Shown here: piece after piece, positions 11,598 through 44,314 of the stretch
Numbering within the stretch: the first letter of the stretch is position 1
How the letters are laid out: each line of letters opens with the position of its first letter
IMG/VR virus record: IMGVR_UViG_3300047160_036265
Length of the DNA: 55,242 bases
Source of the DNA: a virus
Reading direction: 5' to 3' (one strand)
Notes under the pieces: generated by a model
What the model was told of the DNA's origin: nothing
Seen by the model: only the letters and a program-made list of their open reading frames with translations
Databases searched by the model: none
Made by a program: the position numbers and the translations under genes

Positions 11598-11622
11598 TCT
11601 CTTTTCACTCCATGCGAGGGGG

Positions 11623-15509: not shown

Positions 15510-15973
15510 ATTCCCAAACCTCCACTCAGGCCCATTTGACGTTCAAGTTCATGGGGGCATACACCCGACGCACCCCTTCCAAGATTGCAGTTGGAACAAA
15601 GCACCTGAACCCCAACGTCGGGCCAGTTATTCTTCCTCAACCAGAGATAGAACGCATAACCAGCCTTGCATTTTAATTGCCTTCGGTGCTTCGCTCCATC
15701 TTGGTTAATATGGTCCAAAGTTAAAAACTCCAGCCGTGGCTCCCCGCAGCACCGGCAGTTTATGCCGTAGTGGTCCATTACCTCCCGTTTGATTTTCCAA
15801 TAAGCCGCCGAGTTTCTTTGCTTTTCAACCTGCTTGTTCTCTTGGTATCTTTTGCCCCTTCGGCCTATCAGACAGACCTTACAATACTGACACTTGCCAT
15901 CGTGTCGGGTCTTATCGGCGTGAAAAGCCTCCGGTTTCTTCCAGCCACATCCAGGCGTTGCGCATTTCTTCAT
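15506..15973 (-). CDS. HNH endonuclease
   Basis: CxxC...CxxC pairs and LDHINQDG...H (HNH motif). Confidence 0.7.
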   Translation of the reverse strand: MKKCATPGCGWKKPEAFHADKTRHDGKCQYCKVCLIGRRGKRYQENKQVEKQRNSAAYWKIKREVMDHYGINCRCCGEPRLEFLTLDHINQDGAKHRRQLKCKAGYAFYLWLRKNNWPDVGVQVLCSNCNLGRGASGVCPHELERQMGLSGGLGI

Positions 15974-16008: not shown

Positions 16009-16671
16009 TCATTCCCCATATTGTTCCCATTCTTGGCCCCAGCGCTTTTTCAATTCTGCGATGTAGGCGTCGGTTTTTATTTTCCGCATCCACAGCTTGT
16101 GGCCGGTGCCGCCCTTGCACACCACGCCCTCGAACACCGGGTAGCGGCCTTCGCGCACATCACGAATAAACTTCTCGGTGAGCGTCCCTTCATAAATAAC
16201 CGACGAAACGGGCAGGTGTCCGAAAGATTTCAGAAATTCCCAGGCATCCACCAGGCCCTTGCGGTGCAGGTTGACATCAATAAGCACCACGTCCTTCGGG
16301 TCATTATGCTCGGCCTGGATGACCATGTGCTTGGGATCATGCTGACCGCTGAAGGAGTTGGGGCCGAAGAATTCACAATAGGCGATGCCGTCCGTGATCT
16401 TAGGGTACTTGTCCCGGAGGACTTTCGCAACCTGTTCCCCATATTTTTCTTGGAAGAGGCCCACGGCGCAGCCATATTCCGGGTCAGCGGCGTCAAAGGT
16501 ACGGCGGCGGGTGCCGCAGAGCCACCAGCCCTTCTTCTTATTCCACTCGAAGCGCAGGTTGGACCCGTCGTATTTGTAAAAAGCAATACAGGGCTGCCCC
16601 AGGGGCGGCTTGACCCTCGCTCCGTCGATACTCCAGTATTCCTTCATGTGCAACCACCACTCGGCCTTCAC
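16009..16671 (-). CDS. Rnl2-family RNA ligase-like nucleotidyltransferase (220 aa)
   Basis: Motif I KYDGSN (KxDG), motif III CEFFG, motif IV EGVVCKG, motif V KIK. ATGA-coupled to the upstream small ORF. Confidence 0.65.
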   Translation of the reverse strand: MKAEWWLHMKEYWSIDGARVKPPLGQPCIAFYKYDGSNLRFEWNKKKGWWLCGTRRRTFDAADPEYGCAVGLFQEKYGEQVAKVLRDKYPKITDGIAYCEFFGPNSFSGQHDPKHMVIQAEHNDPKDVVLIDVNLHRKGLVDAWEFLKSFGHLPVSSVIYEGTLTEKFIRDVREGRYPVFEGVVCKGGTGHKLWMRKIKTDAYIAELKKRWGQEWEQYGE

Positions 16672-19695: not shown

Positions 19696-20622
19696 TCACA
19701 CTTCGCTGTTGCCGATGATGTCGCCGGCAATGCCCTTCAGCCGCTCGACCTTCTCGGCGGGGGTGTCATTCAAGCCCAGCTTCGCCTTCCCGACGAAGTG
19801 GACCGGGCTGAACACCCGAAAGAACGCCCGGACGTGATCCAGGGCCTTGGCGTAGACCGGGACGCGCCCGATGACGCCCTTCTTGACCGTGACCTGCGGG
19901 GTCGTCACCAGGACCAGCTTGCGCTCTTCCGGCGTCAACTCGTTCTGGACGAACCCCATGATCTTCTTGGCGACCGCCTTCTCCTCGTCGGTCGCTTCCT
20001 TGAAGTCCTTGCCTTCCTGGTGGCCGAACAGCAACTCGTTGAAGGCCCGCAGGCTCTTCACCGGGCGCATCTCGACCTCGTTCGCCAGGAACGCCTCGGC
20101 CTGGTCCTGCGGCACGCCCATCTCCACCAGCAGCCGGACGGTCGCCGTCTGGAGGGTTTCGCCTTCAGCGGGTTCGGGCAGGTGGATGTTGTTCTTGGTG
20201 AAGCGGTCCTGCACCTGGAACAGCGCCTCCATGTCGCGCTGGCCGGGCGCACCGTCCTTGTCCAGCTTCAGGGCCGGGTTCGTGGGCTGGGCCTTGTACT
20301 TCCACAGGCTTTCCTCCCACAGTGCGAACACCACACGGTCAACCTCGTCCTCGCTGTTCTCGGCGCGCTTCTGGACGATCTCGGACAGCACCTTGGCCCC
20401 GACGAAGCGCTTGAACGCCTCGATGACGTGCGGGGGCAGGGGGACTTCGGGCCGGTCGGCCTTCTTGCCCTTCTCCTTCACCGTGGCGGAACCGTCGTCG
20501 CCCAGGGCGTCGAACAGGTCGTCACCAGCGGGGGCAGCGCCGCCACGGACAGCGCCGGGAATAGAGTGGGTGGGCTGGGAGCCAGTGGCCGGGGTGGCGG
20601 GGGTGGAACGGGAACGAGCCAT
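19696..20622 (-). CDS. hypothetical protein (308 aa), monocistronic unit
   Basis: ATG with GGAGG Shine-Dalgarno. Its own P4 promoter lies upstream and a strong terminator downstream. The N-terminus is disordered, rich in Ala/Pro/Gly. Confidence 0.6.
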   Translation of the reverse strand: MARSRSTPATPATGSQPTHSIPGAVRGGAAPAGDDLFDALGDDGSATVKEKGKKADRPEVPLPPHVIEAFKRFVGAKVLSEIVQKRAENSEDEVDRVVFALWEESLWKYKAQPTNPALKLDKDGAPGQRDMEALFQVQDRFTKNNIHLPEPAEGETLQTATVRLLVEMGVPQDQAEAFLANEVEMRPVKSLRAFNELLFGHQEGKDFKEATDEEKAVAKKIMGFVQNELTPEERKLVLVTTPQVTVKKGVIGRVPVYAKALDHVRAFFRVFSPVHFVGKAKLGLNDTPAEKVERLKGIAGDIIGNSEV

Positions 20623-20711
20623 TGCGGGAACCTCCTCCGAAGAAGGTGACTGTATGCCCCCAGCACTCGCAGGCTGGTCCAGGGCTTAGGGCACCTACTC
20701 GGTACTTTTTC

Positions 20712-20740
20712 ATCTTACTGCTGCGGCTACCCGTTGTAAA
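20712..20740 (-). promoter_or_regulatory. promoter P4
   Basis: TTTACAACG + 17 nt + TAAGAT. Confidence 0.6.
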
Positions 20741-20770
20741 GCCGCTTCTGCCGATAAAGGTACGCCAGCG

Positions 20771-21100
20771 TCAGGGGTGGTCAGAATTTTTCTCGGATTC
20801 TTCCGGGTCAGGGTCGCCCAGCCGGTCGATGGCCCGCTCCTGCTGGAGCATGATGATCTTGGCCTTGAGCAGTGTGATCTTCTCTCGACGTATCTTCTTT
20901 TCCTGTTTGAGTTTCTTCTCCTGCTTGGCCATGTCCTTGCGGAATTCTCCGTAGGCCCGGTGAAGCTCCGGGTCGCTGGGTTCGGGGAGAATCTTCAGCA
21001 ACTTCTCGATACTCGGCAGGTACTCGGCGTCCTTGCGCTCCATCTCATCGAGGGCATCGAGGATGGTGTCCAGGTCCGAGTCGGTGAAATCGACGGCCAT
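20771..21100 (-). CDS. coiled-coil protein (109 aa)
   Basis: ATG with GAGGAG Shine-Dalgarno. Confidence 0.5.
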   Translation of the reverse strand: MAVDFTDSDLDTILDALDEMERKDAEYLPSIEKLLKILPEPSDPELHRAYGEFRKDMAKQEKKLKQEKKIRREKITLLKAKIIMLQQERAIDRLGDPDPEESEKNSDHP

Positions 21101-21110
21101 AAATCGCTCC

Positions 21111-22127
21111 TCAGTTCACGTTGAGTTTGTCGCAAAAACGCTCGGCCACGTCAAATACCACGTCAAACTCTTTGAGTCCGTCCACGAGGTTGCGGGGAAA
21201 TATCGAGCTTCCGTGCAGAGCGCCCAGAAGACCCGCCAGCATCGACCCGTTACTGTCCGTGTCGCCGCCCGCCGATACCACGTCGTACAGCGACTCGATG
21301 CTAAGCGGGTTTCGCACGAAGAACATATAGGTGAAGGGCAGGGAGTCGTAGATGTAGCAACTGCCCTTCAAGTCGGTGACGATCTTGCCGGCGTCGTATT
21401 CCTCGTACTGGTAGAGCAACTTCATGCGGGCGTGCAGGTCGTCGTCGCCCTCATCGGCGCTTTTCTTGAATCGCTTGTCCTTGCCCATCAGGGCGGCACC
21501 GACCACGCAGTTGATAAAGGAGTCCACCCGAAAGTCGGCGGGGTCGCTGGTCAGGCATTTGAAAATTGCGAATGCCTGGCACAACCCACTTTGGACTGCC
21601 ATGCGGGCGTTATGGGTCATGCGGGTGTAGTTTTCAATGTCCTGCACGCTCTGACCCCAGGCCGGCTCCTCGCACTGCGGGTTGGTGATCGCCATGTATG
21701 CGCCTAGGGGCGCAATCTTCATGGGGATACCGTTGCCGGTGCCACGTTTGGGTTCCTTGGTCTTGCCGGAAGTGGTCCAGGGTACGCCTTGGGCCAGGCG
21801 AGCCACGGCCTCCTTGGTGGTCTTGCCCCAGCCCCGGACGCTCTTCTTATATTCCTCGACGTGCCAGGCAGCGATGGCATTCAGGTCCAGGCAGCCTGTC
21901 TGAATGATACCCTCGGCGGTAGCCTTGGTCAACTGCCAGTCATCGGTGGTGGTGCCCCGATGGTCGTCATCGAAATACTTGTGGCTGGAGCAGTCGAGGT
22001 AGTCGGTGATGCGCCCGTAGCGCTTCTGAATGCCCTCCAGGGTGTTGCTCTCGGTGGGCTTGCCCAGAGCATCGCCAATAGCAATGCCCAGGAACATGCC
22101 AGTAATACGGTCACGAGTAATCGTCAT
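21111..22127 (-). CDS. ADP-ribosylglycohydrolase (ARH/DraG family)
   Basis: N-terminal RDRITGMFLGIAIGDALGKPTE and C-terminal GGDTDSNGSMLAGLLGALHG, the ARH family Mg-binding signatures. Confidence 0.8.
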   Translation of the reverse strand: MTITRDRITGMFLGIAIGDALGKPTESNTLEGIQKRYGRITDYLDCSSHKYFDDDHRGTTTDDWQLTKATAEGIIQTGCLDLNAIAAWHVEEYKKSVRGWGKTTKEAVARLAQGVPWTTSGKTKEPKRGTGNGIPMKIAPLGAYMAITNPQCEEPAWGQSVQDIENYTRMTHNARMAVQSGLCQAFAIFKCLTSDPADFRVDSFINCVVGAALMGKDKRFKKSADEGDDDLHARMKLLYQYEEYDAGKIVTDLKGSCYIYDSLPFTYMFFVRNPLSIESLYDVVSAGGDTDSNGSMLAGLLGALHGSSIFPRNLVDGLKEFDVVFDVAERFCDKLNVN

Positions 22128-22617
22128 GCGGTTCTCCGGCCTTCAATTTGCGGACGGTTTCTTCCAGTTTGGCGATCTGGACACTTTGCCGCATCGTCTT
22201 GGCTTCCAATTGCCGGCGGCTTACCTGCGCACACCTATCTTCTGTCGTTTCGAGGGAGATGTCAACCATATCACGGGCGGAAAGCGTCTTCCGCCAGCCA
22301 TCCAGTTTGGCGGCGTATTCCTCCTGGCCCGCCTCGCACAACTTCTTCCACTCGAAGTCAAGAAAGGCATCCACCTTGTCAATGATGTATTCCCGGCAGT
22401 CCTTGAGCTTCTTGTCGTATTCCTCGTACAGATCAACTTCCAGTTGCTCTGTCTTTTTCCGTTCGGCCAGAAGCATCTGGTATGCTTCCTCGTAGCCCTC
22501 TTCGAGCGCCTGCTCCATTTCCTTTTTGACGGCCTCCAGCTTGCCCTTGTACTCTTCCTCCAACTCGGCCCGGACCTCGGCCTTTAATTCGGCCCGGCCT
22601 ATCCAGAAGTTTTCCAT
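22111..22617 (-). CDS. coiled-coil protein (about 168 aa)
   Basis: Internal ATG (MENFWIG...) with AAAGGA Shine-Dalgarno. Confidence 0.5.
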   Translation of the reverse strand: MENFWIGRAELKAEVRAELEEEYKGKLEAVKKEMEQALEEGYEEAYQMLLAERKKTEQLEVDLYEEYDKKLKDCREYIIDKVDAFLDFEWKKLCEAGQEEYAAKLDGWRKTLSARDMVDISLETTEDRCAQVSRRQLEAKTMRQSVQIAKLEETVRKLKAGEPHDDYS

Positions 22618-22657
22618 TGCGAAATCCTTTCTTAAATTGCGGGCGTCCTGCCATATT

Positions 22658-24073
22658 CTAACCAGTTTTCTCCGGCAACGGAAGGGTGACAATAAATTCG
22701 CTGCCCTCCCCCAACTTGCTGGTGACGGTAATGGTGCCGCTATGGGCCTCCACAATAGAGCGGACCAAGCTCAGACCGATACCCATACCGCTACCATTTT
22801 GGGTATCAACGATTTTGTGAGCCTGCACGAACAAGTCAAAAATATGGGGCAGGATGTCTTCGGGGATGCCGGGGCCGTTGTCTGTGACCTTGATCTCAAT
22901 GATGGCCTTGATGACCTGGACGGTAAGGCTTATAAGACTGCCGCTAGGTGCAAATTTAAGGGCGTTGCCGATCAAGTTAAAAAACACCTGCTGCCAGCGG
23001 GTGGGGTCGGCATAGATGAGCAAGGGTTCTGCCGGGATGCGCACCTTGAGAATTTGATTTTTCTTTTCGGCGGTAATATAAAGCGTTTCCAGCGCGTTGC
23101 GAACGGCGTGTTGCAGGATCATATCCTGCTTGTGAATCGGCAAGCGGCCCGTGGTGATCCGGGATACGTCGAGCAGGTCATCTACCAGGCGGGTGAGATG
23201 GACGGCTTGCCGCTCAATAATATCCAGGTGCCTCTGAGTGTCGATACCTTTTCGCAGAACCGGCAGCGAAGTGAAAATCGGCGCAAGCGGGTTCCGCAGT
23301 TCGTGGCTCAGCATGGCGATGTACTCGTCCTTGCGATTGTCCTCTGTGCGCAGTTTTTCTTCGGCCTGCTTGCGCTTGGTGATCTCCTCGGAGAACATGA
23401 TGATGCCGCCGATCTCGTCCACCGAACAGTACCAGGGACGCTTTTCCCAGCGCAGCCAGTGGACCATGCCGTTGGGGCGCTCAATATAGTCCTCGTCGCT
23501 GGAGACAGTTTCACCGCCCAGCGCCTTATAAATCGCCGTCTTCCAGCGTTCGGGGATTTCCGGGAATACGTCAAAGTGCCGTCTGCCGATAAGCGAGCGG
23601 CCAGCCTCGCGCTCGGCTGGAAAGAAGTCAACGAGCCAGCGGCGACTAACCGCCACATAGCGCAACTCAGTATCCAAGATGGCGATGGCGGACGGCGAGT
23701 GTTCGATGAGGAGGTTCAGAGTAGTGCGCAGGCGGTTGTAGTCAGTGATGTCATTGTTGACTTCGACAACTTGTACGGACTCGCCCTTGGTGTAAAGGGC
23801 CTGATGGCTGGCAACGGTGAGCCGGCGTCCGTCCTTGCGGGTGTGGATAAGTTCCCCGCTCCACCTGCCGTCGCGCAGAATAGTGGCGGCAATATCCTCG
23901 GCGGGAAGGGCGTGGAAGATCGTTTTGAGGAGTGAATGACTGATCTGGCCAACCGCCTCCTCCTTGGTGAAGCCGTACAGCAGGGCCGCTCCGGCGGACC
24001 AAAACTGGATACGACCGTCGATGTCTCGAATTAACACGTTAGCCACATCGAGAACATCACTCACCGATTTCAT
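22658..24073 (-). CDS. PAS-domain sensor histidine kinase (471 aa)
   Basis: Two PAS-like segments, the HisKA H-box SHELRNPL, and HATPase N/G boxes (NLIGNALKF, DNGPGI, GSGMGIGL). Confidence 0.8.
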   Translation of the reverse strand: MKSVSDVLDVANVLIRDIDGRIQFWSAGAALLYGFTKEEAVGQISHSLLKTIFHALPAEDIAATILRDGRWSGELIHTRKDGRRLTVASHQALYTKGESVQVVEVNNDITDYNRLRTTLNLLIEHSPSAIAILDTELRYVAVSRRWLVDFFPAEREAGRSLIGRRHFDVFPEIPERWKTAIYKALGGETVSSDEDYIERPNGMVHWLRWEKRPWYCSVDEIGGIIMFSEEITKRKQAEEKLRTEDNRKDEYIAMLSHELRNPLAPIFTSLPVLRKGIDTQRHLDIIERQAVHLTRLVDDLLDVSRITTGRLPIHKQDMILQHAVRNALETLYITAEKKNQILKVRIPAEPLLIYADPTRWQQVFFNLIGNALKFAPSGSLISLTVQVIKAIIEIKVTDNGPGIPEDILPHIFDLFVQAHKIVDTQNGSGMGIGLSLVRSIVEAHSGTITVTSKLGEGSEFIVTLPLPEKTG

Positions 24074-24134
24074 AATGCCCTCGATTCAGGCGCATTAGGG
24101 TGCTTCGGCCACTATGCCTCCCACGTTCCGTTCC

Positions 24135-24704
24135 TCAGATCGCGCCAAGACACTTGTACATGAACAGCACGGGCCAGGTCTTGGCGGAAAACTTGTTGCG
24201 GCTCTCGCACAGGGAACAAACCCCGGCGTAATCCAGCAGGTGGACTTCGATTTCCTCCGTAGCCTCGTTGCCGTCATGGTTGACGGTGCCTTCGCACTCG
24301 CAGAATACCAATACTACAGACTCGTCGGAAAGTCCAGCAGAAGATATGAGAGATGGACTGATTTTGATAATTCCGGTGAGGGTCAGGCCCGTTTCTTCCT
24401 TCAGTTCGCGCTTGGCATCCTGCACAGCATCGGCCTCGCACAGCCCGGCAGGGAAAGCGTACTCATAGTCGTTGAGGGGAATGCGAAACTCACGGAGGAC
24501 CACAAGGCGGCGTTGGCCCTGCTCGTTGACGTGGATGGGTACGATGATAACGGCATCGGGCTTGAGTTGCCCAGAGCCGTTGGCGGGTTCTTTTTTGCGC
24601 GAGGCGAAAATCCAGTCGCCTTCTTTATTGCGGTTCTTCCAGTGGACGGAGAACAAATTGAGCCAGCGGAAGTCGGTGAGCTTCTTAGGGGGAGTCACGT
24701 CCAT
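24135..24704 (-). CDS. Nudix hydrolase (ADP-ribose pyrophosphatase-like; 189 aa)
   Basis: Nudix box ...GLCEADAVQDAKRELKEETGL (REx2EExGL). AGGAGG Shine-Dalgarno. Confidence 0.75.
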   Translation of the reverse strand: MDVTPPKKLTDFRWLNLFSVHWKNRNKEGDWIFASRKKEPANGSGQLKPDAVIIVPIHVNEQGQRRLVVLREFRIPLNDYEYAFPAGLCEADAVQDAKRELKEETGLTLTGIIKISPSLISSAGLSDESVVLVFCECEGTVNHDGNEATEEIEVHLLDYAGVCSLCESRNKFSAKTWPVLFMYKCLGAI

Positions 24705-24933
24705 CGCCGCCTCCTACGAATTTGAAATTGATGCCGTTCTCTTCCATCAGGACGATGGTGGAGAGATAAATGAAGTCATCAGAATCAACGCCGCAGACAC
24801 CCACCATGAGGCCCAGGTGAATGTCTTCGTCGCTTGTTTTCAGAAGACCGATGGCATCAAGCGCCGCCCGGCGAGCGGATCGACGCTTGATGCGGACGTT
24901 GAAATCGCCGCTGGAGACTATAAATTCGGGCAT
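24685..24933 (-). CDS. hypothetical protein (82 aa)
   Basis: Internal ATG (MPEFIVSS...) with GGGAGGGGG Shine-Dalgarno. Confidence 0.45.
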   Translation of the reverse strand: MPEFIVSSGDFNVRIKRRSARRAALDAIGLLKTSDEDIHLGLMVGVCGVDSDDFIYLSTIVLMEENGINFKFVGGGDGRDSP

Positions 24934-24964
24934 CGCCCCCTCCCTGAAAATAAGACTTCCGGTG

Positions 24965-26050
24965 TCAGCCGTCCACATCCATGTCGGCAAATAGCCGGTT
25001 GGGGTACTTGACCTTGTACCCCTCCAGCAGACGGGCCTTGATCCCCTCGGTTACGTCCTTCTTGTCGAAGGCCGTCATGAGCGACCCGAAAATCTGGGGA
25101 TATTCGGCCTTGGCAAGCCAGGCATAATCCTTGCGCAGTTTTTCGGGGCCTGGATCGCCTACGGACGCTACCTCCATTATAGCAGCAGCCACCTTTAACA
25201 CACGGCTGGTTTCGTGCAGAAGGTCAAGCTGCGCCTCGGTATAGATTTCCTTCAGTTTCGCCTGGTGACGATCTGGTGCCTTGGCGATCAGGTCGTCCAT
25301 CAACCCGTCAAAGACGACTTCATAAAGCCGGTAGGCCGGACGCATGAGCGCATCAACAGCCTTGTGTCGCTCCAGATACCAGTTGCACTTCGCCTTGACC
25401 CACAGGCCATTTTCCAGAACGACGACGTAGCCTTCAAATTCCTCCCGCTCCAGGTGATCGAAGAGATCAGCGAACGCGAAGTCATAGCGGATCGCGCTGT
25501 CGGGGTAGGTTGGGCAGTGGTCGTAGTCTCCGGTGGCACGGCAACGGGAATGCAGGTACACCAGACGAGAGCGTGGGTATTCTACGACAATTTGGTTGTG
25601 GGGGGCCACAAACTCAAAGATCGGAGTATAACCTCGCCGTACCTCCTTAACAATGTCGTCCACCATACCCAATTTCCGTGCCAAACGCAACGCCTCCTGG
25701 GCCTGTGGCGTGTCGCAAGACATCCTGGTGGACGCACGCAGGTCGCCCTTCCATTCAAAGAAATGGATCATCGACCCGTCCAGCTTCTCGTACACCTTTC
25801 CATTCAGGTGGCAGAGCTTGTGGTACTGCGTCTCGTCCGTCTGGCCGACGTTGAAAAACTTGTGCAGGGGCAGGGAGACAATTTGCTCGGTGGCCTCGTC
25901 AAAGGTGATGCCCCGGAATTCCCGCCGAATGCCGTCGAACGACCCAGGAATCTGGATGAGGTAGTTTACGCAAACCAGGCCGTCGTACCGCTTTACGAGG
26001 AATTCCTCACGGCCTTCGAGGGCGACCAGGGCTTCGGAGAGGGTGAACAT
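24965..26050 (-). CDS. T4 RnlA-like RNA ligase 1 (about 361 aa)
   Basis: FRGITFDE...PLHKFFN, VYEKLDGSM (KxDG motif I) and TPIFEFVAPHNQIVVEY, collinear with T4 Rnl1. Starts at MFTLSE immediately downstream of P5. The -10 lies 6 nt from the ATG, so the mRNA looks leaderless. Confidence 0.8.
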   Translation of the reverse strand: MFTLSEALVALEGREEFLVKRYDGLVCVNYLIQIPGSFDGIRREFRGITFDEATEQIVSLPLHKFFNVGQTDETQYHKLCHLNGKVYEKLDGSMIHFFEWKGDLRASTRMSCDTPQAQEALRLARKLGMVDDIVKEVRRGYTPIFEFVAPHNQIVVEYPRSRLVYLHSRCRATGDYDHCPTYPDSAIRYDFAFADLFDHLEREEFEGYVVVLENGLWVKAKCNWYLERHKAVDALMRPAYRLYEVVFDGLMDDLIAKAPDRHQAKLKEIYTEAQLDLLHETSRVLKVAAAIMEVASVGDPGPEKLRKDYAWLAKAEYPQIFGSLMTAFDKKDVTEGIKARLLEGYKVKYPNRLFADMDVDG

Positions 26051-26056
26051 TTTGGT

Positions 26057-26086
26057 ATTGTACAGCCGGAACGAGGCGGTTGTAAA
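26057..26086 (-). promoter_or_regulatory. promoter P5 (leaderless rnlA-like transcript)
   Basis: TTTACAACC + 18 nt + TACAAT. The predicted start site coincides with the A of the ATG. Confidence 0.6.
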
Positions 26087-26283
26087 ACTGTGCGGTGCCG
26101 GATTCCCGATTCTCCACCGGCATCTCCGGGTGCCGGGACCGTGCATCCCGGCCCATTGTGGCTTTGCTCCCCGGCGTGTTAATTTGTGGATCGTGTCTAG
26201 CAGCCGAGTGGTCAAGTCGGCCTCTTTTTACACCAACCGCACAATTTTTGTTTTACAACCCATATATAGGAGAGGAGGGATTC

Positions 26284-26376
26284 ATGCACCCGCAAAGGAT
26301 TTGCAACCACAACATTATCGCATCGGAGGCGGTAAATATCAAGGCCATGTCACAGTTTGGCAGCCTGTTCTTCTAA
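26284..26376 (+). CDS. possible small ORF (30 aa) on the plus strand
   Basis: Near-perfect Shine-Dalgarno AGGAGAGGAGGG 5 nt before the ATG. Preceded by a plus-oriented TTTACAAC. Convergently overlaps the 3' end of the gene at 26350-27237 by 27 nt. Confidence 0.25.
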   Translation: MHPQRICNHNIIASEAVNIKAMSQFGSLFF

Positions 26377-27237
26377 TGCGGCTCTCACTCGTGTGGCGTC
26401 GGCCTTTCCTCCTAGCTCTCTTAAAACCGGGCCGATGAGCGAGTTGAGAGCCTGCTTTTTACCCTTCTTGTAGTCTTCAACCACCTTGGGTGATGCCGCC
26501 AGGTACTTCGCCACGGTGGTCGCAACTACGTCCTCCTGGGCAACACTAAGGATGTCCAACGCAAAGATTGCTGTCAAGGCATCAACGCCGTCCCAGCAAT
26601 AAGGAAACACATCCTTTACCTGCTTGGCGGACAGCACCCCCTTCAGTCGCAGGAACAGCAAGCTAGTTATATCATCAGCCAGCCACGGCAGATAGTCCAG
26701 CACGTCGGCTAATGTGAATTTGGTCTGCTCCAGCTTGGCCTGCAACTCGTTAGTCAGGAAATTAAAAACGAGCTTGCACCAGTCGGTCCACTCGGAAGGT
26801 GGCGCAGGCGGCGGTTTGTACCGGGGCATGTAGCCTTCATTCGGTATTTCCACCCACTCAATATCAGGCCAGTTCCGCTTTTTCTTGAGGCGAAGCCACC
26901 TTTCCAAACTCCCCTGCCCCAACAACCGCCAGCTAAAGCGGCGACTTTGTGGGGGATGTTGAAGCGTTTGCCGCCCCTCAACCTTTTTGCGCTCCGGGGC
27001 TTGGAGATCGGGCACAGTGATAAACATATGCCAATCTGGCACGCTTGCCTCTGCTGGCTTTCCCTGCATCTCGTAATACGGGAACTTCATCAGCCAGTAG
27101 ACTGCCTGACCCAGCTTATCGGTGGACCGCTCCCAATATTCCCGCTCGGCCTCCAGCCAAAAAGAAACGCCGTCTCCCGGTGGGGAGCCGGCGTTTTGCC
27201 ATTTGAAGTAGGCCCGCAGCCTAATGTCGTCAAGCAT
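26350..27237 (-). CDS. DUF2934-like N-terminus fused to a GatB/YqeY-domain C-terminus (about 295 aa)
   Basis: N-terminal IRLRAYFKW...WLEAEREYW. C-terminal VAKYLAASPKVVEDYKKGKKQALNSLIGPVLRELGGKADATRVRAALEEQ resembles the GatB C-terminal/YqeY domain. ATG with GAGGAAGG Shine-Dalgarno. Confidence 0.55.
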   Translation of the reverse strand: MLDDIRLRAYFKWQNAGSPPGDGVSFWLEAEREYWERSTDKLGQAVYWLMKFPYYEMQGKPAEASVPDWHMFITVPDLQAPERKKVEGRQTLQHPPQSRRFSWRLLGQGSLERWLRLKKKRNWPDIEWVEIPNEGYMPRYKPPPAPPSEWTDWCKLVFNFLTNELQAKLEQTKFTLADVLDYLPWLADDITSLLFLRLKGVLSAKQVKDVFPYCWDGVDALTAIFALDILSVAQEDVVATTVAKYLAASPKVVEDYKKGKKQALNSLIGPVLRELGGKADATRVRAALEEQAAKL

Positions 27238-28750: not shown

Positions 28751-30424
28751 TCAGGCCGCAGTCGGGCGCAGCTTCTCGACCTTCACGCCGCACTTCTCGA
28801 TGCCCTTGGCATCCATGAAGTCTTCGATGTCGAAATCAGCGTTCTTGGCGATGTTGTGCAGATAGGTCGTCTGCACCGCAGCCCGGAAGTCATCGACACG
28901 GACGAAGGTGCCTTTGCCGGACTTCGAGGCCATGTCGCGCTTCATGGCGGCGGACGTGGCGATGTCAATGATGCCGGCGATCATGGCCCCGGTGAGGCAA
29001 TCGCCCAGCGTCAAGTAATGTTCCTTGCCGCCGCCGTCCACGAGCTTGTACAGCACGCGCTCCTGGGAGAAAATCTCGGCGGTAGTGTGGGCAGCGATCT
29101 CGGCCAAATCCGCCGGGCCGGTCGGAATGCCCCGCAGGTGAATGCGGAAATATTCAATGGCCGTGCGGGTCGTGGGCCGACCGATGCGCACCATGCGGTC
29201 GATCCGGCCTTCCCGAACCACGGCGGGGTCGATGCGCTGTTGCTGGTTGGTGGCGAGCATCACCATGACCTTGGAGGTTTCCAGGCCGTCCATTTCCGAC
29301 AGGAACATCGGAACGATGGTGTTCTCCACGTCGCTCGACTTGCCGGTGCCCCGTTTCGGCAGGATGGCATCGGCCTCGTCCACAAAGAGGAGGGCGGGGT
29401 ATCCGTGTTTGCCGTGGTGTTCACGGCCACGCTCGAACAACTCCCGGATCATCTGCTCCGACTGGCCGACCCACTTGCTCAGCAACTCCGGCCCCTTGAC
29501 GTAGATGAAGCCGGACTGCATCTGCGGCTTCTCGTGAATCTTGGCGATGCTGTTCGCCGCCGCCTTGGCGCAGAGGGTTTTGCCGCAGCCCGGAGGGCCA
29601 TACAACAGGACGCCCTTGGGCGGCTTCTTGTTGTAGTGCTTGTAGAGTTCCGGGAACTGGTAGGGCCGTTCGATAGCCTCCACCAACTGCTCCTTGGCCT
29701 CGCGCAACCCGGCGATTTCATCCCAGGTCGTCTGGGACTCCTCGACCAGATTGAAGCGGTCCTGGCCGTCGCGCTCCAACAGGCGGACCACCACGGTATC
29801 GGAGGGGTCCAGCACCACCCGGTCGCCCGGCTTGAGCGTTGTGTTGGGCAGGCCGTGCAAGACCTGGCGGGGCCGACCATCCACGTCCACTTCGGCGTGG
29901 TCCTTGTCGATGAGGCGGGCAACGGCGCAGATCGTACCACCGCCGCTCGTCTCGGACTTCTCGTGGATTTGATAGGTCTGCAAATCGACCTTCACCACGT
30001 CGGACGGGAAGAACTTCTTGCCCGGAACGCCGTGAACTTCGTAGCGCTGGCCGTTGAAGACGATCACGCAGTTGGTGCCGTCGTCCTTGCCCAGCAGTTT
30101 GACCTGAACCGGCGCGTCCTTCAGGCCGATGGAAAACTTCTGGATGGCTCCGTTCGGCAGGCCCAGGGTGACGTTGCCCTCCTTATCGACGCCCTTGGAA
30201 GCGATCTTGCCGTAGCGTGGGCGTTTCTCTTGCTTGCGCCACTCCCTGTCAATAATGAGCATCAAGTCGCCTTGCTCAAAGGCGTCCAACTTGAACTCGT
30301 TATTGGCGCTGACCACGGTGGCATAGACCAGCGGGGCAGACAGGAGGCGGGCGACGAAGCACTCGTACTCCAGAATGGTGCCTTTGGCCTCTTCCAGCAA
30401 CGCCATCAATTCTTCTTCGTTCAT
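28751..30424 (-). CDS. Mpa/ARC-type proteasome-associated AAA+ ATPase homologue (557 aa)
   Basis: PKGVLLYGPPGCGKTLCAKAAANSIAK, VKGPELLSKWVGQSE, RGTGKSSDVENTIVP and IDPAVVREGRID are near-identical to mycobacterial Mpa blocks. Coiled-coil plus OB-like N-terminus. The C-terminus ends ...LRPTAA and lacks the GQYL docking motif. Confidence 0.8.
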   Translation of the reverse strand: MNEEELMALLEEAKGTILEYECFVARLLSAPLVYATVVSANNEFKLDAFEQGDLMLIIDREWRKQEKRPRYGKIASKGVDKEGNVTLGLPNGAIQKFSIGLKDAPVQVKLLGKDDGTNCVIVFNGQRYEVHGVPGKKFFPSDVVKVDLQTYQIHEKSETSGGGTICAVARLIDKDHAEVDVDGRPRQVLHGLPNTTLKPGDRVVLDPSDTVVVRLLERDGQDRFNLVEESQTTWDEIAGLREAKEQLVEAIERPYQFPELYKHYNKKPPKGVLLYGPPGCGKTLCAKAAANSIAKIHEKPQMQSGFIYVKGPELLSKWVGQSEQMIRELFERGREHHGKHGYPALLFVDEADAILPKRGTGKSSDVENTIVPMFLSEMDGLETSKVMVMLATNQQQRIDPAVVREGRIDRMVRIGRPTTRTAIEYFRIHLRGIPTGPADLAEIAAHTTAEIFSQERVLYKLVDGGGKEHYLTLGDCLTGAMIAGIIDIATSAAMKRDMASKSGKGTFVRVDDFRAAVQTTYLHNIAKNADFDIEDFMDAKGIEKCGVKVEKLRPTAA

Positions 30425-33225: not shown

Positions 33226-33261
33226 GACTTTCTCCAAGGGGTGTTGAGGATTCTGGTTATG

Positions 33262-39511: not shown

Positions 39512-40142
39512 TCTGGTTCTCCAGGGCCAGAATCAGCCGGTCCACGCCAATGGCCCAGCCAATCCCGCAGTCATAGCGCCCGCCGCCCGCCACCTGCTTT
39601 TGGGCACCCAAGCTAGGCACTTCTACCTCGAAGCCGTCTTCAACATAATAGGACAAGCCACGCTTGACGCTCGCGTTGAGGACGTAATTCTCCAGCCCGA
39701 TTGTACGGAGAAACAGGTCCAGAAGTTTAGTCATTTCCTCCTTACTGGCGGTTCCGCCCAGGTTCTCCACCCCGAATTGCCAGAATTCCCGGTAACGACC
39801 GGCCTGGGGACGGTCATAACGGTAACACCGGCTGAGGTAGAAGACCTTGACGGGTTTGGGCAGGACTTTGCTCCAGTCGTTCTTAAATTCCGCCTGGACG
39901 ATGGCGGTGACTTCCGGGATGAGGCAGATTTCCCTGCCGCCCAGGTCGTCAAAGACGTACATCTGGCCCAGGATTTCAGGCCCGGCCTTGTCGGTGAAGA
40001 CTTCCGAAGAGGCCAACAGCGAGGGGAAGAACTCCTGATAGCCTTCAGCAATGGCGGTGTAGCGCAGGGTGTCGGTCGCGTCCCGAAACGCCTTGGCCTT
40101 GGCCCCGAACAGGTGGCGGGTGCCTCTAATCGAGTTTGACAT
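39492..40142 (-). CDS. HisRS-like class II aminoacyl-tRNA synthetase catalytic-core protein (216 aa; no anticodon-binding domain)
   Basis: GTRHLFG...MYVFDDLGGREICLIPEVTA (motif 1 region), CYRYDRPQAGRYREFWQFG (motif 2), GGGRYD (motif 3). Confidence 0.7.
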   Translation of the reverse strand: MSNSIRGTRHLFGAKAKAFRDATDTLRYTAIAEGYQEFFPSLLASSEVFTDKAGPEILGQMYVFDDLGGREICLIPEVTAIVQAEFKNDWSKVLPKPVKVFYLSRCYRYDRPQAGRYREFWQFGVENLGGTASKEEMTKLLDLFLRTIGLENYVLNASVKRGLSYYVEDGFEVEVPSLGAQKQVAGGGRYDCGIGWAIGVDRLILALENQNGGQSF

Positions 40143-41091
40143 CTCCGCTCATCAACCCTTCTCGAATGCGTTCCAGCCCCCGCTCCCGCAGTTGCCGGAC
40201 TCGTTCCTTGGTCAAGCCCAAGTCCTTGCTAATCTCCTTCAAGGTACGCTTTGTGCCGCCATTCTTCAAGCCAAACCACTGTTCGATGACGTATCGCTTG
40301 CGGTCGTCTTCATCGCCCAAGGTCTTCATCAGGCGGGCCACGTTCTTCTTGACAAGCTCCTTCCCCTCCTCATAGTCCCGCAGGTCTTCGTCGCTGGTGT
40401 CCAGGCGGGTGTCATAAATCCCGTCATCAAAACCAGTCACAAACCGCTCATTAAAGGTTCGCTCACCGGCCAGATCACGGGTGAAGTTGTTAAGCAGAAC
40501 CCAGGTGGCGTAGGTGGAGAATTTGAAACCACGGGTCCAATCGAAGCAGTCCACGGCCTTAACGATGTTCATATAAGCATCGGCAAGCAAGTCGTGCATG
40601 AGGCTGTGGGAGCGGTAAAAGTCCGTCCGCTTCCGCAACACCTGAGCGGCGAGGCGGGTGTTGGAACACACGAGTTGGTGCTTCACAACCTCGGCTTGTT
40701 TCAGACATAACTCAACCCGCTCAATAGATTTCAGCGCCCGCTCGTGTTGCTCCGGGGTCGGGGCCTTGGAGCGCCGCAAGGTCCGGGTCAGACGACGGGC
40801 TTTGTACTTGAGGAAGTTATATTTGCGAAACAAATGCCGCTCCTGGTCTTTATCCAGCAGCGGCTCCTGGTATAATGGCATCAGTTCGCTAGGAATATTC
40901 TGGTGCTTGAGCTTGGCGACTTCCTGGCGCTTCTCGTTGAATTCATCCATCCGGGGCATCTCAGCCAGGATTTCCGCCTGCATAGAGCGGAGATCGAAGT
41001 CCGGCGACTTGAATATCTTGAACTTCGGGCTGCTCACATAACTCACCAATTCTTTCGCGCGCTGCGCAATGTCATCCTTTACTGCCAACAT
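40126..41091 (-). CDS. sigma-70 family sigma factor (321 aa)
   Basis: Region 2 DLLADAYMNIVKAVDCFDWTRGFKFSTYATWVL. Region 4 TLKEISKDLGLTKERVRQLRERGLERIR. AAAGGAGG Shine-Dalgarno. Own P10 promoter. Confidence 0.85.
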   Translation of the reverse strand: MLAVKDDIAQRAKELVSYVSSPKFKIFKSPDFDLRSMQAEILAEMPRMDEFNEKRQEVAKLKHQNIPSELMPLYQEPLLDKDQERHLFRKYNFLKYKARRLTRTLRRSKAPTPEQHERALKSIERVELCLKQAEVVKHQLVCSNTRLAAQVLRKRTDFYRSHSLMHDLLADAYMNIVKAVDCFDWTRGFKFSTYATWVLLNNFTRDLAGERTFNERFVTGFDDGIYDTRLDTSDEDLRDYEEGKELVKKNVARLMKTLGDEDDRKRYVIEQWFGLKNGGTKRTLKEISKDLGLTKERVRQLRERGLERIREGLMSGDVKLD

Positions 41092-41122
41092 GGTGCCTCC
41101 TTTCGGCAGTTACGCAGAACGA

Positions 41123-41152
41123 ATTATATGCTAAATCGAGATGGTTGTAAAG
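41123..41152 (-). promoter_or_regulatory. promoter P10 (sigma factor gene)
   Basis: TTTACAACC + 17 nt + TATAAT. Confidence 0.65.
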
Positions 41153-41168
41153 TGCGAAATATAAGGAT

Positions 41169-41576
41169 TTACGGAACGGGCACCAAGAAAGAGTTGAGCG
41201 CCCGGACGATATTCCGCACCTTATATCCCTTGGGGTGGTCCACGACCACCGTTATTTCCTGATCGGCCACGGCCCAGGGCTTGCCGGCGGCGTTGCTTTC
41301 GATGATGACGTAGACCATAGAGTTGTGGGTATAGCGGCGGCTATAACCCAGGCGGTCCCACAGTTCCTTGGCCTGCGGGGATTGGAAAATAAAAAACTCG
41401 TTGCGATCCAGCCTGGAGCGACCCCGCAAGCTAGGTGCGCCGTTAGGCGGGTCGTCATACTCCACCACCATTTCCGGCCAGTGGGCTTTGCACAGACCGA
41501 GAATGCCCTTCTCGATCTGTGCATATTTCTTGCCTTCCGGCCAGGTGTAGAGCAGATCGTAACCGCCGATTTCCAT
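41169..41576 (-). CDS. hypothetical protein (135 aa)
   Basis: ATG overlaps the upstream stop. Confidence 0.5.
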   Translation of the reverse strand: MEIGGYDLLYTWPEGKKYAQIEKGILGLCKAHWPEMVVEYDDPPNGAPSLRGRSRLDRNEFFIFQSPQAKELWDRLGYSRRYTHNSMVYVIIESNAAGKPWAVADQEITVVVDHPKGYKVRNIVRALNSFLVPVP

Positions 41577-43138
41577 TATTTACCGCAGGTTGGGTCGTAT
41601 TTGTGCATCATCTGATTGATGGTAGCCAGGTCCAGCGGTTTGACCAGGAAATCATGGAATCCGGCGTCCTGGGCACGCTGGCGGTCCTTCTCCTGGCCGA
41701 AGCCGGTGACGGCGATGACTTTTGTTTCCGGCACGAGGCGGATCAACTCCTGGCAGACCTTGTAGCCGTCCATGTAGGGCAGGCCAATGTCCAGCAGCAC
41801 GATATTGGGTACGAACTCGGTCGCGCTCTTCAGGGCCGCTGGGCCATCGTTGGCCACCCACACGTCGTAGCCCTGCATCCGCAGCATGGCCACCATGCTG
41901 TCCGCCGCATCCACATTGTCATCCACGACGAGGATGCGGCAGTCCTTGGTAGGGGCGATGGGGAATGACGCAGGTTCCCCGGTATCCTCCTTGCGTGGTG
42001 AACCGCCCTCGATGGATTCCGGTACGGGAACCTCGTCGCCCACATCGCTTACGGGGAATTCGATGCTGAAGGTGGACCCCAGGTTGAGGCCCGGCGAATG
42101 AGCGGCAACGGTTCCTCCCTGAAGCTCCGTCAACTGCTTGACGAGGCTCAGACCTACTCCCAGACCGCCGTGGGTCTGGTATTCGCCCCGGCGCTCGGCC
42201 TGCACGAACAGGTCGAAAATACGGGGCAGCATGGTTTCGGAGATGCCGATGCCGGTATCCACGACTTCGATTTTTACCTTCTTCTGGTCATCCGAGAGGA
42301 GGCAGTTGAGACGGATTTTTCCACCCGGTTCCGTATATTTGGCAGCGTTGTTGAGCAAATTGGAAATCGCCTGCTCGACACGGGGCGCATCGCCCACCAT
42401 CCAGATCGCCTCGGACGGGATGGAAATGTATAAGGAGTGATAGCGGGTGTCGATGGCGGGCCGTGACTGGTCGATGGCGTTGGAAATGGCCCGCTGAAGC
42501 TGGACTGGCTCCTGCTTGATATTGATTTTGCCCCGGCTGATGCGGGCCATGTCCAGCAAGTCATCCAGCAACCGGCCCATATGCTTGACCTGGCGCTCGA
42601 TGATATTACGGTGGTCGCGCAGTACGGCGTCCTGGTTGCCGTCGCGCATCCGGGACACCTGGAGCGACGACAGGATTGGGGCCAGCGGGTTGCGCAGTTC
42701 GTGGGACAGAACGGCCAGGAACTCATCCTTGCGGCGGTCGGCCTCGGCCAGTTCGTCAATCCACTTCTTGCGTTCGCTGATGTCCCGAATAACGGCGACA
42801 ATCCCCTCCTGGTCGCCGTGGTTGAACTTGGACAGGGACATCTCGACGGCGAATTCCTCACCGTTACGACGCCGGCCCACCGTCTCGACCAGTGAGCCGA
42901 TCATGGGGCCTTCCCCGGTGGCCTTATAGTGGACGATACCCCGTGCCATCTCCTCCTGCATACGCAGCGGCACGAAGTCCGCACAGGCAACAACCTTGTT
43001 GACCATCTCCTCCTGCCGATAGCCGAACATCCGTTCCGCCGCCGGGTTGAAATGGGTGATGAGCAAGTCCTGGTTGGCGATGATGATGGCATCCTGGGCG
43101 CTGTCGAGGATGGCTTGCAACATGGCTATATCCTCCAT
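41576..43138 (-). CDS. hybrid sensor histidine kinase (PAS-HisKA-HATPase-REC; about 520 aa)
   Basis: H-box SHELRNPL, N/G boxes LLNNAAKY, DTGIGI, GGLGVGL. C-terminal receiver ILVVDDN...LLDIGLPYMDG...KPLD. TGATG coupling. Confidence 0.8.
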   Translation of the reverse strand: MEDIAMLQAILDSAQDAIIIANQDLLITHFNPAAERMFGYRQEEMVNKVVACADFVPLRMQEEMARGIVHYKATGEGPMIGSLVETVGRRRNGEEFAVEMSLSKFNHGDQEGIVAVIRDISERKKWIDELAEADRRKDEFLAVLSHELRNPLAPILSSLQVSRMRDGNQDAVLRDHRNIIERQVKHMGRLLDDLLDMARISRGKINIKQEPVQLQRAISNAIDQSRPAIDTRYHSLYISIPSEAIWMVGDAPRVEQAISNLLNNAAKYTEPGGKIRLNCLLSDDQKKVKIEVVDTGIGISETMLPRIFDLFVQAERRGEYQTHGGLGVGLSLVKQLTELQGGTVAAHSPGLNLGSTFSIEFPVSDVGDEVPVPESIEGGSPRKEDTGEPASFPIAPTKDCRILVVDDNVDAADSMVAMLRMQGYDVWVANDGPAALKSATEFVPNIVLLDIGLPYMDGYKVCQELIRLVPETKVIAVTGFGQEKDRQRAQDAGFHDFLVKPLDLATINQMMHKYDPTCGK

Positions 43139-43539
43139 CACCCCTGGTCAGGGGGCAGTTCCGTAAAGAAGTCCTCGGATTGCTCGACAACCTCTTGCCC
43201 CCCTTGTCGTGCAGCGAGTTTGTGACCCAGACGGAGCAGACCTAGCGCGATATGCGGAGGAAGGTTATGAACCTCCATTTGCAGGTCAATGCCCATAAGC
43301 TCGAACCTGGGCAGCAAGAGAACGAATTGCGGTTGCGGCCTCTTGCGCAACTCGGCCAGCAGTTGATCGGTTGTAGCCAACTCCAGGTCGAGTTGCAAGG
43401 GGTCTTTTCCCACAAGGACGTTCAGACGTTGCTGCAAGTCATGTGCCCGAACTTTGTAGCGGTACAAACGAAAAACCAGATAACCCCCCATCGCCGTGAG
43501 CAGCAGCGCCGTGAGGCTGGCAACTACGAGGTTGAACAT
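43138..43539 (-). CDS. membrane-anchored protein (about 133 aa)
   Basis: Internal ATG (MFNLVVAS...) with AAGGAGAGGG Shine-Dalgarno. N-terminal TM helix. Immediately upstream of the hybrid kinase. Confidence 0.5.
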   Translation of the reverse strand: MFNLVVASLTALLLTAMGGYLVFRLYRYKVRAHDLQQRLNVLVGKDPLQLDLELATTDQLLAELRKRPQPQFVLLLPRFELMGIDLQMEVHNLPPHIALGLLRLGHKLAARQGGQEVVEQSEDFFTELPPDQG

Positions 43540-43765: not shown

Positions 43766-44314
43766 TTAGAGGCGACGGATCACTTGGTTGACCAGCCTCT
43801 CACGCCACGAGAAATTGGTCCAATCCGGTGCCTTCTCGAATGAGAAGTCGTGAGGAAAAGCAGTGTATTTTACCACGCTGCCATCTCGTGTCAATAATAA
43901 TGGTTGCACGCCCTTCACAAATTCTTCATCCACGCTCACAACCCACGGCTCGACATATATGCCGTGCTGAGGCCGACAAGCCTGGCCGATGGTCAGATCG
44001 AGCATTTCATTTTGCGAAACCACGACCAAATGGCCGGACCACTTCCCTTCAGTATAACCATATCCCAGGCCAACGCTATAGGAACCGTCCGTCTGGAAAG
44101 CTTCTTCCAGAGCGGCGGTAGTGCGTGGTGCGCGTCCTTCGCTCATGCGCCTGACCAGCGGCTCATTATAAATAAGGGCCTTCACCGACAGCGGTTGAGC
44201 GGGGATTTTGAAAAAATGCAGCACGTCGAGGGCGACCCGACTGGCAAGAATGCAGCAATCGGGCCGGTGGTTGCATAGTACCTCCGGGATCAACGTCCGA
44301 AGCCGCTCCAACAT
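43766..44314 (-). CDS. hypothetical protein (about 182 aa)
   Basis: Internal ATG (MLERLRTL...) with AAGGGG Shine-Dalgarno. Confidence 0.5.
   Translation of the reverse strand: MLERLRTLIPEVLCNHRPDCCILASRVALDVLHFFKIPAQPLSVKALIYNEPLVRRMSEGRAPRTTAALEEAFQTDGSYSVGLGYGYTEGKWSGHLVVVSQNEMLDLTIGQACRPQHGIYVEPWVVSVDEEFVKGVQPLLLTRDGSVVKYTAFPHDFSFEKAPDWTNFSWRERLVNQVIRRL

Follow-up and report, generated by a model that had tools for sequence, protein, structure and literature searches.

Two PAS-type histidine kinases of a probable soil huge phage and their possible route into host phosphorelays

The IMG/VR virus record IMGVR_UViG_3300047160_036265 includes a stretch of 55,242 nucleotides (the window, meaning the whole of the DNA that was analysed) that encodes two histidine kinases: HK1, which has two PAS domains, and HK2, a hybrid kinase with a C-terminal receiver. 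The reading preferred here, with a probability of roughly 0.55, is that both are functional cytoplasmic PAS kinases of a soil huge phage, that they were captured separately and that they signal via phosphorelay proteins of the host. As proteins, the kinases are unremarkable examples of a very large family; their carrier is unusual, yet has viral precedents.

Architecture of the two kinases

The original prediction, made from the letters of the window, placed a complete kinase at each of two loci, and both are borne out by open reading frames (ORFs), Pfam domains and directly read H, N, G1 and G2 boxes. HK1 is a real ORF of 471 amino acids (aa) at 22658-24073 on the minus strand, which starts at an ATG (24073) with a GAGGG Shine-Dalgarno sequence ahead of it and ends in TAG. 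The longest ORF of HK2 spans 41576-43141 on the minus strand from a GTG at 43141. Its probable start is the ATG at 43123, which gives a protein of 515 aa, has a GGAGGA Shine-Dalgarno sequence 7 nt upstream and agrees with the N-termini of the orthologues P0122 and P0123. The parts of the two proteins are:

22658..24073, minus strand: HK1, soluble PAS-PAS-HisKA-HATPase_c histidine kinase without a receiver domain
23741..24037, minus strand: PAS-A of HK1 (aa 13-111; Pfam PAS_9, E 3.5e-10)
23366..23704, minus strand: PAS-B of HK1 (aa 124-236; Pfam PAS_4, E 2.4e-19)
23147..23332, minus strand: DHp/HisKA of HK1 (aa 248-309; Pfam HisKA, E 2.9e-15)
23303-23305, minus strand: codon of the HK1 phospho-acceptor His257, in the H-box SHELRNPLAPI
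22673..23008, minus strand: HATPase_c of HK1 (aa 356-467) with N, G1, F and G2 boxes (Pfam, E 5.7e-29)
41576..43141, minus strand: HK2, soluble hybrid kinase, PAS-HisKA-HATPase_c-Receiver
42779..43123, minus strand: PAS of HK2 (aa 7-121; Pfam PAS, E 9e-14)
42533..42730, minus strand: DHp/HisKA of HK2 (Pfam HisKA, E 1.2e-16)
42701-42703, minus strand: codon of the HK2 phospho-acceptor His147, in the H-box
42050..42394, minus strand: HATPase_c of HK2 (Pfam, E 3.6e-23)
41609..41935, minus strand: receiver of HK2 (aa 403-511; Pfam Response_reg, E 6.2e-25)
41789-41791, minus strand: codon of the HK2 receiver phospho-acceptor Asp451, in LLDIGLP

All these domain matches of both kinases exceed the Pfam gathering scores by far. 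The H-box SHELRNPLAPI is common to HK1 and HK2 and unchanged across five sequences, while the N boxes are NLIGNA and NLLNNA, the G1 boxes DNGPGI and DTGIGI, and the G2 boxes GMGIGLSLV and GLGVGLSLV (each pair as listed for the two kinases), with FDLFVQA as F box. On these sequence features, HK1 and HK2 are HisKA-class kinases that are predicted to autophosphorylate. The receiver that had been claimed for HK2 is present, with its acid pair (DD in VVDDN), Asp451 (LLDIGLP), Thr (AVTG) and Lys (LVKP) invariant in three orthologues. HK2 is thus a predicted hybrid kinase with a fused receiver and the full residue set, and HK1 a kinase without a receiver. Hydropathy gives no transmembrane segment for HK1 (maximum KD19 of 1.47) or for HK2; since neither has a hydrophobic segment, both are predicted to be soluble cytoplasmic proteins.

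The nearest solved structures to PAS-A of HK1 are 3lyx and 3ewk, both weak matches (E ~1e-8), and the nearest to PAS-B is 3luq (E 2.5e-30), an uncharacterised PAS domain from structural genomics. The PAS domain of HK2 is matched best by the haem domain of FixL (1d06, E 6.4e-12, 114 residues). The proximal haem histidine of FixL (His194 in S. meliloti, His200 in B. japonicum) aligns to Met or Glu in HK2 (phmmer alignments with 1d06 and 1y28), and the nearest His of the HK2 PAS domain is not conserved, being Thr in orthologue P0123. Haem-based O2 sensing by HK2 is therefore not supported, and this candidate was rejected. The LOV-type NCRFL motif is absent from HK1 and HK2, the sequences of which were read directly.

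Carrier, capture and selection

The carrier is very probably a huge phage, as judged by homology and gene order. According to a protein database record, its source contig comes from soil and measures 669,797 bp. In a codon-usage gene call of the window, all calls but one weak one lie on the minus strand; most are without a family match, and every gene with such a match is on one strand. A tblastn query of seven concatenated window proteins led to LR756511.1, a deposited ‘uncultured phage’ of 595,163 bp with which the window has a common gene order across 45 kb at 30-65% amino-acid identity. The collinear genes run from PRPP synthetase, M50 peptidase, ClpX, calcineurin-like phosphoesterase (Metallophos), GGACT and a sigma factor to a 270-aa protein, PARP, a 242-aa protein, ADP-ribosylglycohydrolase (ARH) and a 176-aa protein. 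A 188-kb IMG/VR contig (IMGVR_UViG_3300044451_000175) has eight genes in common with the window at ~50% identity; IMG/VR relatives were retrieved by a hand-made degenerate pattern of the sigma motif, CFDWTRGFKFSTY. Synteny with the deposited phage and the IMG/VR contig favours the viral carrier that the original prediction had assumed over a non-viral island.

Free-standing HNH endonucleases are common in large lytic phages, and the window has two:

6621-6983, minus strand: free-standing HNH endonuclease (phrog_2255 and related families)
15506-15973, minus strand: free-standing HNH endonuclease (phrog_2255 and related families)

A T4-type RNA ligase 1 is also encoded in the window, and endonuclease VII in its relatives. 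A PHROG screen of all unassigned genes returned HNH endonucleases, RNA ligases, one family of unknown function and nothing else. Megablast of 24.5 kb of the window found no match among deposited phages. IMG/VR scans with HK1, a 693-aa protein of the window, sigma and a sigma alignment gave no match, the patterns being too strict or poorly placed.

HK1 and HK2 belong to a very large cellular subfamily with thousands of matches at E <1e-10, and the nearest cellular proteins are 41-50% identical to them over the kinase core. Among the 120 best homologues of HK1, about 5/6 are hybrids that carry a receiver and no Hpt on the same protein, as are nearly all homologues of HK2; hybrid kinases without an Hpt of their own normally act with separately encoded partners. 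In a distance analysis of 240 cores, those of HK1 and HK2 hold mutual ranks of 173 and 226 of 239. Because many cellular kinases are closer to each core than the two cores are to each other, two separate captures are indicated; these ranks and a neighbour-joining tree led to rejection of the idea that one kinase arose from the other by duplication in the phage. A search of 185,579 species-representative genomes (GTDB) with HK2 and the sigma motif found no relative, the single match of 26% identity being chance.

Kinase orthologues in the same gene order occur in independent soil metagenomes. That of HK1 is 69% identical and keeps the gene order (relatives L003-L005), and those of HK2 (P0122, 87%; P0123, 62%) are likewise in conserved order. 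In LR756511.1, no kinase lies upstream of ARH, the position of HK1. Both kinases are, from these comparisons, lineage-specific captures, absent from the syntenic sites in LR756511.1 and the 188-kb IMG/VR relative.

The ratio of nonsynonymous to synonymous divergence (dN/dS) is 0.18 for HK1, 0.27 for HK2 and 0.07-0.18 for neighbouring genes, at a dS of ~1, which is near saturation; the sensor PAS domains have values of 0.19-0.29. Substitution of the catalytic His or the ATP-site residues, which would mark a pseudokinase, was looked for and is not seen: these motifs are intact and invariant in the orthologues. The DHp domain is the most conserved part of HK1 (83% identity, dN/dS 0.06), and that of HK2 is 80% identical to the L007 orthologue versus 58-66% for the other domains. 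As the DHp helix pair is the seat of partner specificity, its conservation is consistent with a conserved phosphotransfer partner. The low dN/dS, the invariant catalytic residues and the strong conservation of DHp together argue against pseudokinase or passenger status.

In the closest relative (L003, compared with window 21111-26215), the genes that flank HK1 encode proteins 88-96% identical to those of the window, while HK1 and the coiled-coil gene next to it are merely 66-69% identical, forming a local fast-evolving pocket in a conserved block.

Partners, neighbouring genes and alternative readings

The domain annotation and the search for Hpt and response-regulator genes that had been proposed with the original prediction found the kinase domains and, across 55 kb, HK2's receiver alone and no Hpt. 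Pfam was run over all gene calls, with small ones concatenated into artificial polyproteins, and the window was searched in six frames by hmmsearch with a profile hidden Markov model (HMM) from 220 receiver domains. The sole match of this receiver HMM is the receiver of HK2 itself (E 1e-45; next best E 0.027). Pfam detects no Hpt family in any window protein, and the HxxKG motif is absent from every called gene of the window. The predicted absence of a DNA-binding response regulator near the kinases extends to the whole window, in which the Pfam run over all gene calls found no regulator of helix-turn-helix or other DNA-binding type, and the orthologue flanks in relatives L003-L008 likewise show no response regulator and no Hpt. 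The kinase locus does not appear to be a canonical two-component system, as no adjacent regulator with an output domain is encoded in the window, and the predicted phosphorelay is incomplete within the 55 kb that were read (of ~670 kb), where no Hpt domain or protein is encoded.

The HK2 locus is a compact run of genes that leads to a sigma factor gene:

43867..43894, minus strand: promoter-like site TTGACA-16-TG-n-TAAAAT, inside the 3′ end of a 183-aa gene
43138..43539, minus strand: membrane-anchored protein of 133 aa with one N-terminal transmembrane (TM) helix, directly upstream of HK2
41169..41576, minus strand: 135-aa protein of a rare alpha/beta family; its ATG overlaps the HK2 stop (TAATG at 41576)
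41123..41151, minus strand: promoter-like site TTTACA-17-TATAAT, of near-consensus sigma-70 type, in the gap before the sigma gene
40126..41091, minus strand: sigma-70-family factor with regions 2 and 4 (Pfam Sigma70_r2, r4), 77 bp downstream of the 135-aa gene

The 133-aa membrane protein has its maximum KD19 (2.02) at aa 4-22 and no Pfam or NCBIfam match; its homologues are 64% (L006) and 45% (L020) identical, and a single-sequence AlphaFold2 (AF2) model is unusable (pLDDT 53). A cluster of basic residues follows its one N-terminal helix. By the positive-inside rule, a basic flank marks the cytoplasmic side; the soluble domain would therefore be cytoplasmic and not an extracytoplasmic sensor. 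The original prediction described this gene as translationally coupled to HK2 and the protein as a possible sensor partner. Of the coupling, the tight packing holds, and the stop/start overlap does not: with the better start at 43123, the TGA of the upstream gene (43140-43138) lies 14 nt before HK2. The partnership is contradicted by L020, in which the membrane protein is translationally coupled straight to a 135-aa homologue, followed by sigma, with no room for a kinase. Because this pair exists without the kinase, the membrane protein is older than HK2 and independent of it.

The coupled 135-aa gene downstream of HK2 was missing from the original prediction. Its product has no Pfam, NCBIfam or PHROG family, and a confident model gives an alpha/beta sandwich with only generic fold matches. 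A role as Hpt, receiver or known anti-sigma factor was rejected, as the modelled fold resembles none of these and, in the case of Hpt, is not a four-helix bundle. The family is tiny and adjoins this sigma gene wherever the context is readable.

In the window and in three close relatives, the genes of the membrane protein and the 135-aa protein have HK2 exactly between them. Sigma comes straight after GGACT, without HK2, in LR756511.1, the IMG/VR contig and L017, and in L012 a 125-aa homologue precedes sigma, which is followed by a gene resembling histidyl-tRNA synthetase (HisRS). HK2 is thus an insertion into an older module, since relatives show the TM-135aa and GGACT-sigma states without the kinase; its place upstream of sigma is, on this comparison, a result of insertion and not evidence of a dedicated sensor partner.

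The sigma factor is RpoD/RpoS-like by NCBIfam, under the equivalog cut-offs, and 73% identical in L006. Both hexamers of the promoter-like site before its gene are identical in L007, TATAAT is retained in L012, and a GGAGG also precedes the gene. Given this conservation, a promoter of its own that the host recognises is probable for sigma. The site at 43867-43894 is upstream of the 78aa-TM-HK2-135aa run, with TTGACA exact and a -10 TAnnAT retained in L007 and L020; because it lies within coding sequence, part of its conservation is coding constraint. On the coding strand, no terminator-like site separates the HK2 run from sigma. Sigma-70-type promoter-like sites number 13 in 20500-26500 (2.7 in shuffled sequence) and 8 in 39500-45500 (2.5 in shuffled sequence), nearly all on the coding strand, which suggests that the host RNA polymerase holoenzyme transcribes much of both regions. 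Downstream of sigma, a 216-aa protein (39492-40142, minus strand) has only the class II core of histidyl-tRNA synthetase/HisZ. The start of this HisRS-like gene overlaps the sigma 3′ end in the window, L012 (1605-2249), L018 and L019, and the gene is absent from that position in L007 and LR756511.1.

HK1 is followed after 40 nt by a gene for a coiled-coil protein, and the order NUDIX - HK1 - coiled-coil - ARH is found in two lineages. The NUDIX and ARH genes are part of a set of NAD/ADP-ribose and RNA-repair genes that is dispersed in the window, all on the minus strand and listed here after the coiled-coil gene, which is not one of the set:

22111..22617, minus strand: coiled-coil protein, 168 aa
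53821-55089, minus strand: PRPP synthetase
31600-33237, minus strand: PARP with WGR domain
24135-24704, minus strand: NUDIX hydrolase
21111-22127, minus strand: ARH
24965-26215, minus strand: T4 Rnl1-like RNA ligase
35891-36562, minus strand: second RNA ligase
16009-16671, minus strand: probable third ligase with a KYDGSN motif

The coiled-coil protein is conserved in relatives (66% identity in L003) and has no family match and no HxxKG motif.

In the proposed mechanism, the two kinases would have been captured separately from the bacterial PAS S-box/hybrid subfamily and kept by purifying selection in a sub-clade of the phage lineage. During infection, their PAS domains would bind an intracellular ligand or report metabolic state, and autophosphorylation would occur on His257 (HK1) and His147 (HK2), with the phosphoryl group of HK2 passing to Asp451 of its own receiver. 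The signal would leave by phosphotransfer to, or dephosphorylation of, Hpt or response-regulator proteins of the host, and the phage may thus tie the expression of host genes, or the schedule of its own programme, to the physiological state of the host. Several points weigh against this account. The output step is one that we infer, host phosphorelay proteins being its likeliest target. The 55 kb that were read belong to a genome of ~670 kb, other parts of which may encode a response regulator or an Hpt protein. The window has no gene for capsid, portal or terminase, so that viral identity comes from homology and gene order. The nearest named homologues are proteins of Pirellulaceae and Planctomycetaceae metagenome-assembled genomes (MAGs) at ~35-45% identity, too distant for a host call. 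Finally, the kinases are 62-69% identical where their flanks are 85-96% identical, which may reflect weaker constraint instead of adaptive tuning.

A circuit internal to the phage would dispense with host partners: HK2, possibly with HK1 in trans, would control sigma via the 135-aa and membrane proteins and so gate a transcription switch. Such a circuit is unlikely, although the TM-HK2-135aa-sigma adjacency is kept in three diverged lineages, the stop codon of HK2 runs into the ATG of the 135-aa gene, no coding-strand terminator-like site intervenes before sigma and the tiny 135-aa family keeps beside this sigma gene in all readable contexts. The DHp helices of HK1 and HK2 are also very similar (SHELRNPLAPIFTSLPV and SHELRNPLAPILSSLQV); because of this likeness, and because HK1 is without the receiver that most of its homologues carry, the HK2 receiver is a conceivable shared acceptor. 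The shared H-box, however, says little on specificity, because it is common to the whole cellular subfamily, and the HK2 receiver has no output domain. The 135-aa model, a generic alpha/beta sandwich, is unlike Hpt, receiver and known anti-sigma folds. Moreover, a conserved promoter-like site precedes sigma itself, and several relatives have sigma without HK2: L020 has TM, 135-aa and sigma genes without a kinase, L012 has 135-aa and sigma genes without a kinase, and sigma stands alone after GGACT in L011, L017 and LR756511.1. Since relatives keep the module without the kinase, it worked before HK2 arrived. The full checkpoint, in which HK2 in cis and HK1 in trans converge on one receiver and gate sigma via the 135-aa and membrane proteins, would be rather unlikely, and the earlier suggestion of sigma or ClpX as the kinase output is speculation.

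Equally tentative is a role of the kinases as a sink or phosphatase decoy that drains or blocks two-component signalling of the host, such as a stress or defence response to infection. Their orphan status would suit this role, as would the embedding among host-takeover genes (PARP, ARH, NUDIX, a SpoT-like HD hydrolase and ClpX), and phosphate sinks among hybrid kinases and single-domain receivers classically take the form of a receiver without output; yet a constitutive sink needs no PAS domains, which are under purifying selection here, and phosphatase-only action needs no complete ATP-binding site, which is conserved. That the carrier is non-viral (a bacterial chromosome segment, giant plasmid or other extrachromosomal element with ordinary host two-component genes) is quite improbable. 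The thousands of cellular kinase homologues, the lack of capsid, portal and terminase genes in the window and the absence of the source contig from the matches of the IMG/VR scans fit such an origin, but the gene order common to a 595-kb phage and an IMG/VR viral contig does not, nor do 55 kb of genes on one strand bar one call and mostly without family match, the HNH endonucleases and T4 Rnl1 (with endonuclease VII in relatives) and the want of any sigma-motif or HK2 relative in the representative genomes. It is very improbable that the kinases are decaying passengers, recently acquired and with no role in the phage, as could be supposed from their faster divergence than flanking genes and their absence from more distant relatives: dN/dS is 0.18-0.27 at dS ~1 with no frameshifts or internal stops, no catalytic residue varies between lineages whose proteins differ by 13-38%, and HK2 is still tightly coupled to both neighbours.

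Further genes of the window, all on the minus strand, stand apart from the kinases. A 336-aa protein (37397-38407; 79% identity in L007) has an HD hydrolase domain of SpoT/RelA type (HD_4; TIGR00691 region 4-123) and could be a phage (p)ppGpp hydrolase. An AAA ATPase (28751-30424) is closest to the proteasome ATPases Mpa/ARC/PAN, including the OB domain (TIGR03689, 303 bits, below cut-off), and has homologues in Brevundimonas phages annotated as proteasome-associated ATPase. A 693-aa protein (9558-11639) has by far the best codon-usage score of the window and may be highly expressed; it gives a weak DUF4139/MuiA-family match and has no homologue in deposited phages or IMG/VR. A tRNA gene with the anticodon CUA (an amber suppressor; 2264-2337) is labelled tRNA-Pyl by ARAGORN. 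TAG is the rarest stop among the gene calls (6/65) and is used by HK1 itself, readthrough of which would append merely a Gly/Arg-rich tail. Recoding of TAG was rejected, as in-frame TAG counts in long reading frames, the sole measure used, give no sign of it in the window.

Significance and known systems

In most descriptions, lytic huge phages follow an early-middle-late programme that is fixed. A phage of this kind with conserved sensor kinases would be sensing some condition of the infected cell and responding to it. The relatives supply natural ‘before’ and ‘after’ states, in which a kinase is cleanly inserted between two coupled genes upstream of a phage sigma factor, and a 735-kb phage has captured the same architecture independently. 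The advance is incremental unless a phage-internal circuit is real; its importance would be much greater if the phage sigma factor proved to be gated by the kinases. Should the checkpoint exist, the virus would time the switch of its transcription programme by the metabolic state of the infected cell.

Among cellular proteins, the closest counterparts are bacterial ‘PAS domain S-box’ hybrid kinases (MAG and metagenome proteins of Planctomycetota, Acidobacteriota, Myxococcota and other groups), which have the same domain order with or without a receiver, the same H-box LSHELRNPLAPI as HK1 and HK2, and no Hpt domain on the protein. These are mostly multi-PAS proteins of 600-900 aa, whereas HK1 and HK2 are shorter, with one or two PAS domains, and HK1 has lost the receiver that ~5/6 of its best homologues carry. 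The bacterial kinases are cellular; HK1 and HK2 are on a probable huge phage, with no close counterpart in GTDB representative genomes. FixL of rhizobia (PDB 1d06, 1dp6) resembles HK2 in having PAS followed by HisKA and HATPase_c, and its PAS domain is the closest in sequence. FixL differs in its haem-ligating His, which HK2 does not have, and in being paired with a regulator encoded beside it, FixJ; near HK2 there is none.

Phage-borne receptors that guide decisions are exemplified by VqmA of vibriophage VP882 and AimR of the arbitrium system, one-component DNA-binding proteins with the lysis-lysogeny switch as known output. HK1 and HK2 are like them in concept, as phage-borne sensors that would inform decisions on the state of the cell or population. 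By contrast, VqmA and AimR bind DNA directly, and HK1 and HK2 are kinases.

The rarity of phage histidine kinases, as noted in the original prediction, is in line with an IMG/VR scan for this H-box subfamily, which returned one locus on a single contig of 10.6 kb, and with little discussion in the literature. In a survey of 224 jumbo phages, the sole remark on histidine kinases is that they are never associated with a divergent receiver-like domain (PMC7824862), and neither ‘kinase’ nor ‘two-component’ occurs in a 2026 jumbo-phage review (PMC13282480). The Clostridioides difficile phage phiCDHM1 encodes a homologue of AgrC and no response regulator, and a relay via a host regulator has been proposed (PMC3901668). 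Like HK1 and HK2, this AgrC is a phage-encoded histidine kinase of host origin without its own regulator. It is, however, a membrane peptide receptor of another kinase class in an agrB/agrD quorum-sensing cassette of a temperate phage of 54-kb scale, whereas HK1 and HK2 are soluble HisKA-class PAS kinases, one of them a hybrid, of a huge phage.

For the hybrid kinases of EsV-1 (Phaeovirus), a giant virus of brown algae, a link between activation of the virus and cues from the environment or from development has been suggested (PMC12993054, which cites Delaroque et al. 2000 and 2001). They are, like HK2, virus-encoded sensors that join a kinase to a receiver. EsV-1 is a eukaryotic virus (Nucleocytoviricota) with eukaryote-type kinases, one of them in the virion, and has no sequence or evolutionary link to this phage.

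A parallel in architecture comes from LR756501.1, a huge phage of 735 kb, which encodes a hybrid kinase of 737 aa with the order PAS-HisKA-HATPase_c-Receiver (L010 7215-9428); the paper on a 735-kb phage genome has no occurrence of ‘kinase’, ‘two-component’ or ‘sensor’ (PMC7162821). Its domain order is that of HK2, at 26% identity and with the H-box MSHDLRTPMN, so that its kinship with HK1 and HK2 is at family level only. The LR756501.1 phage is unrelated, as judged by its AT-rich coding sequence (read from ORF translations) and by the want of genes in common; its kinase is an independent capture and a second huge-phage case.

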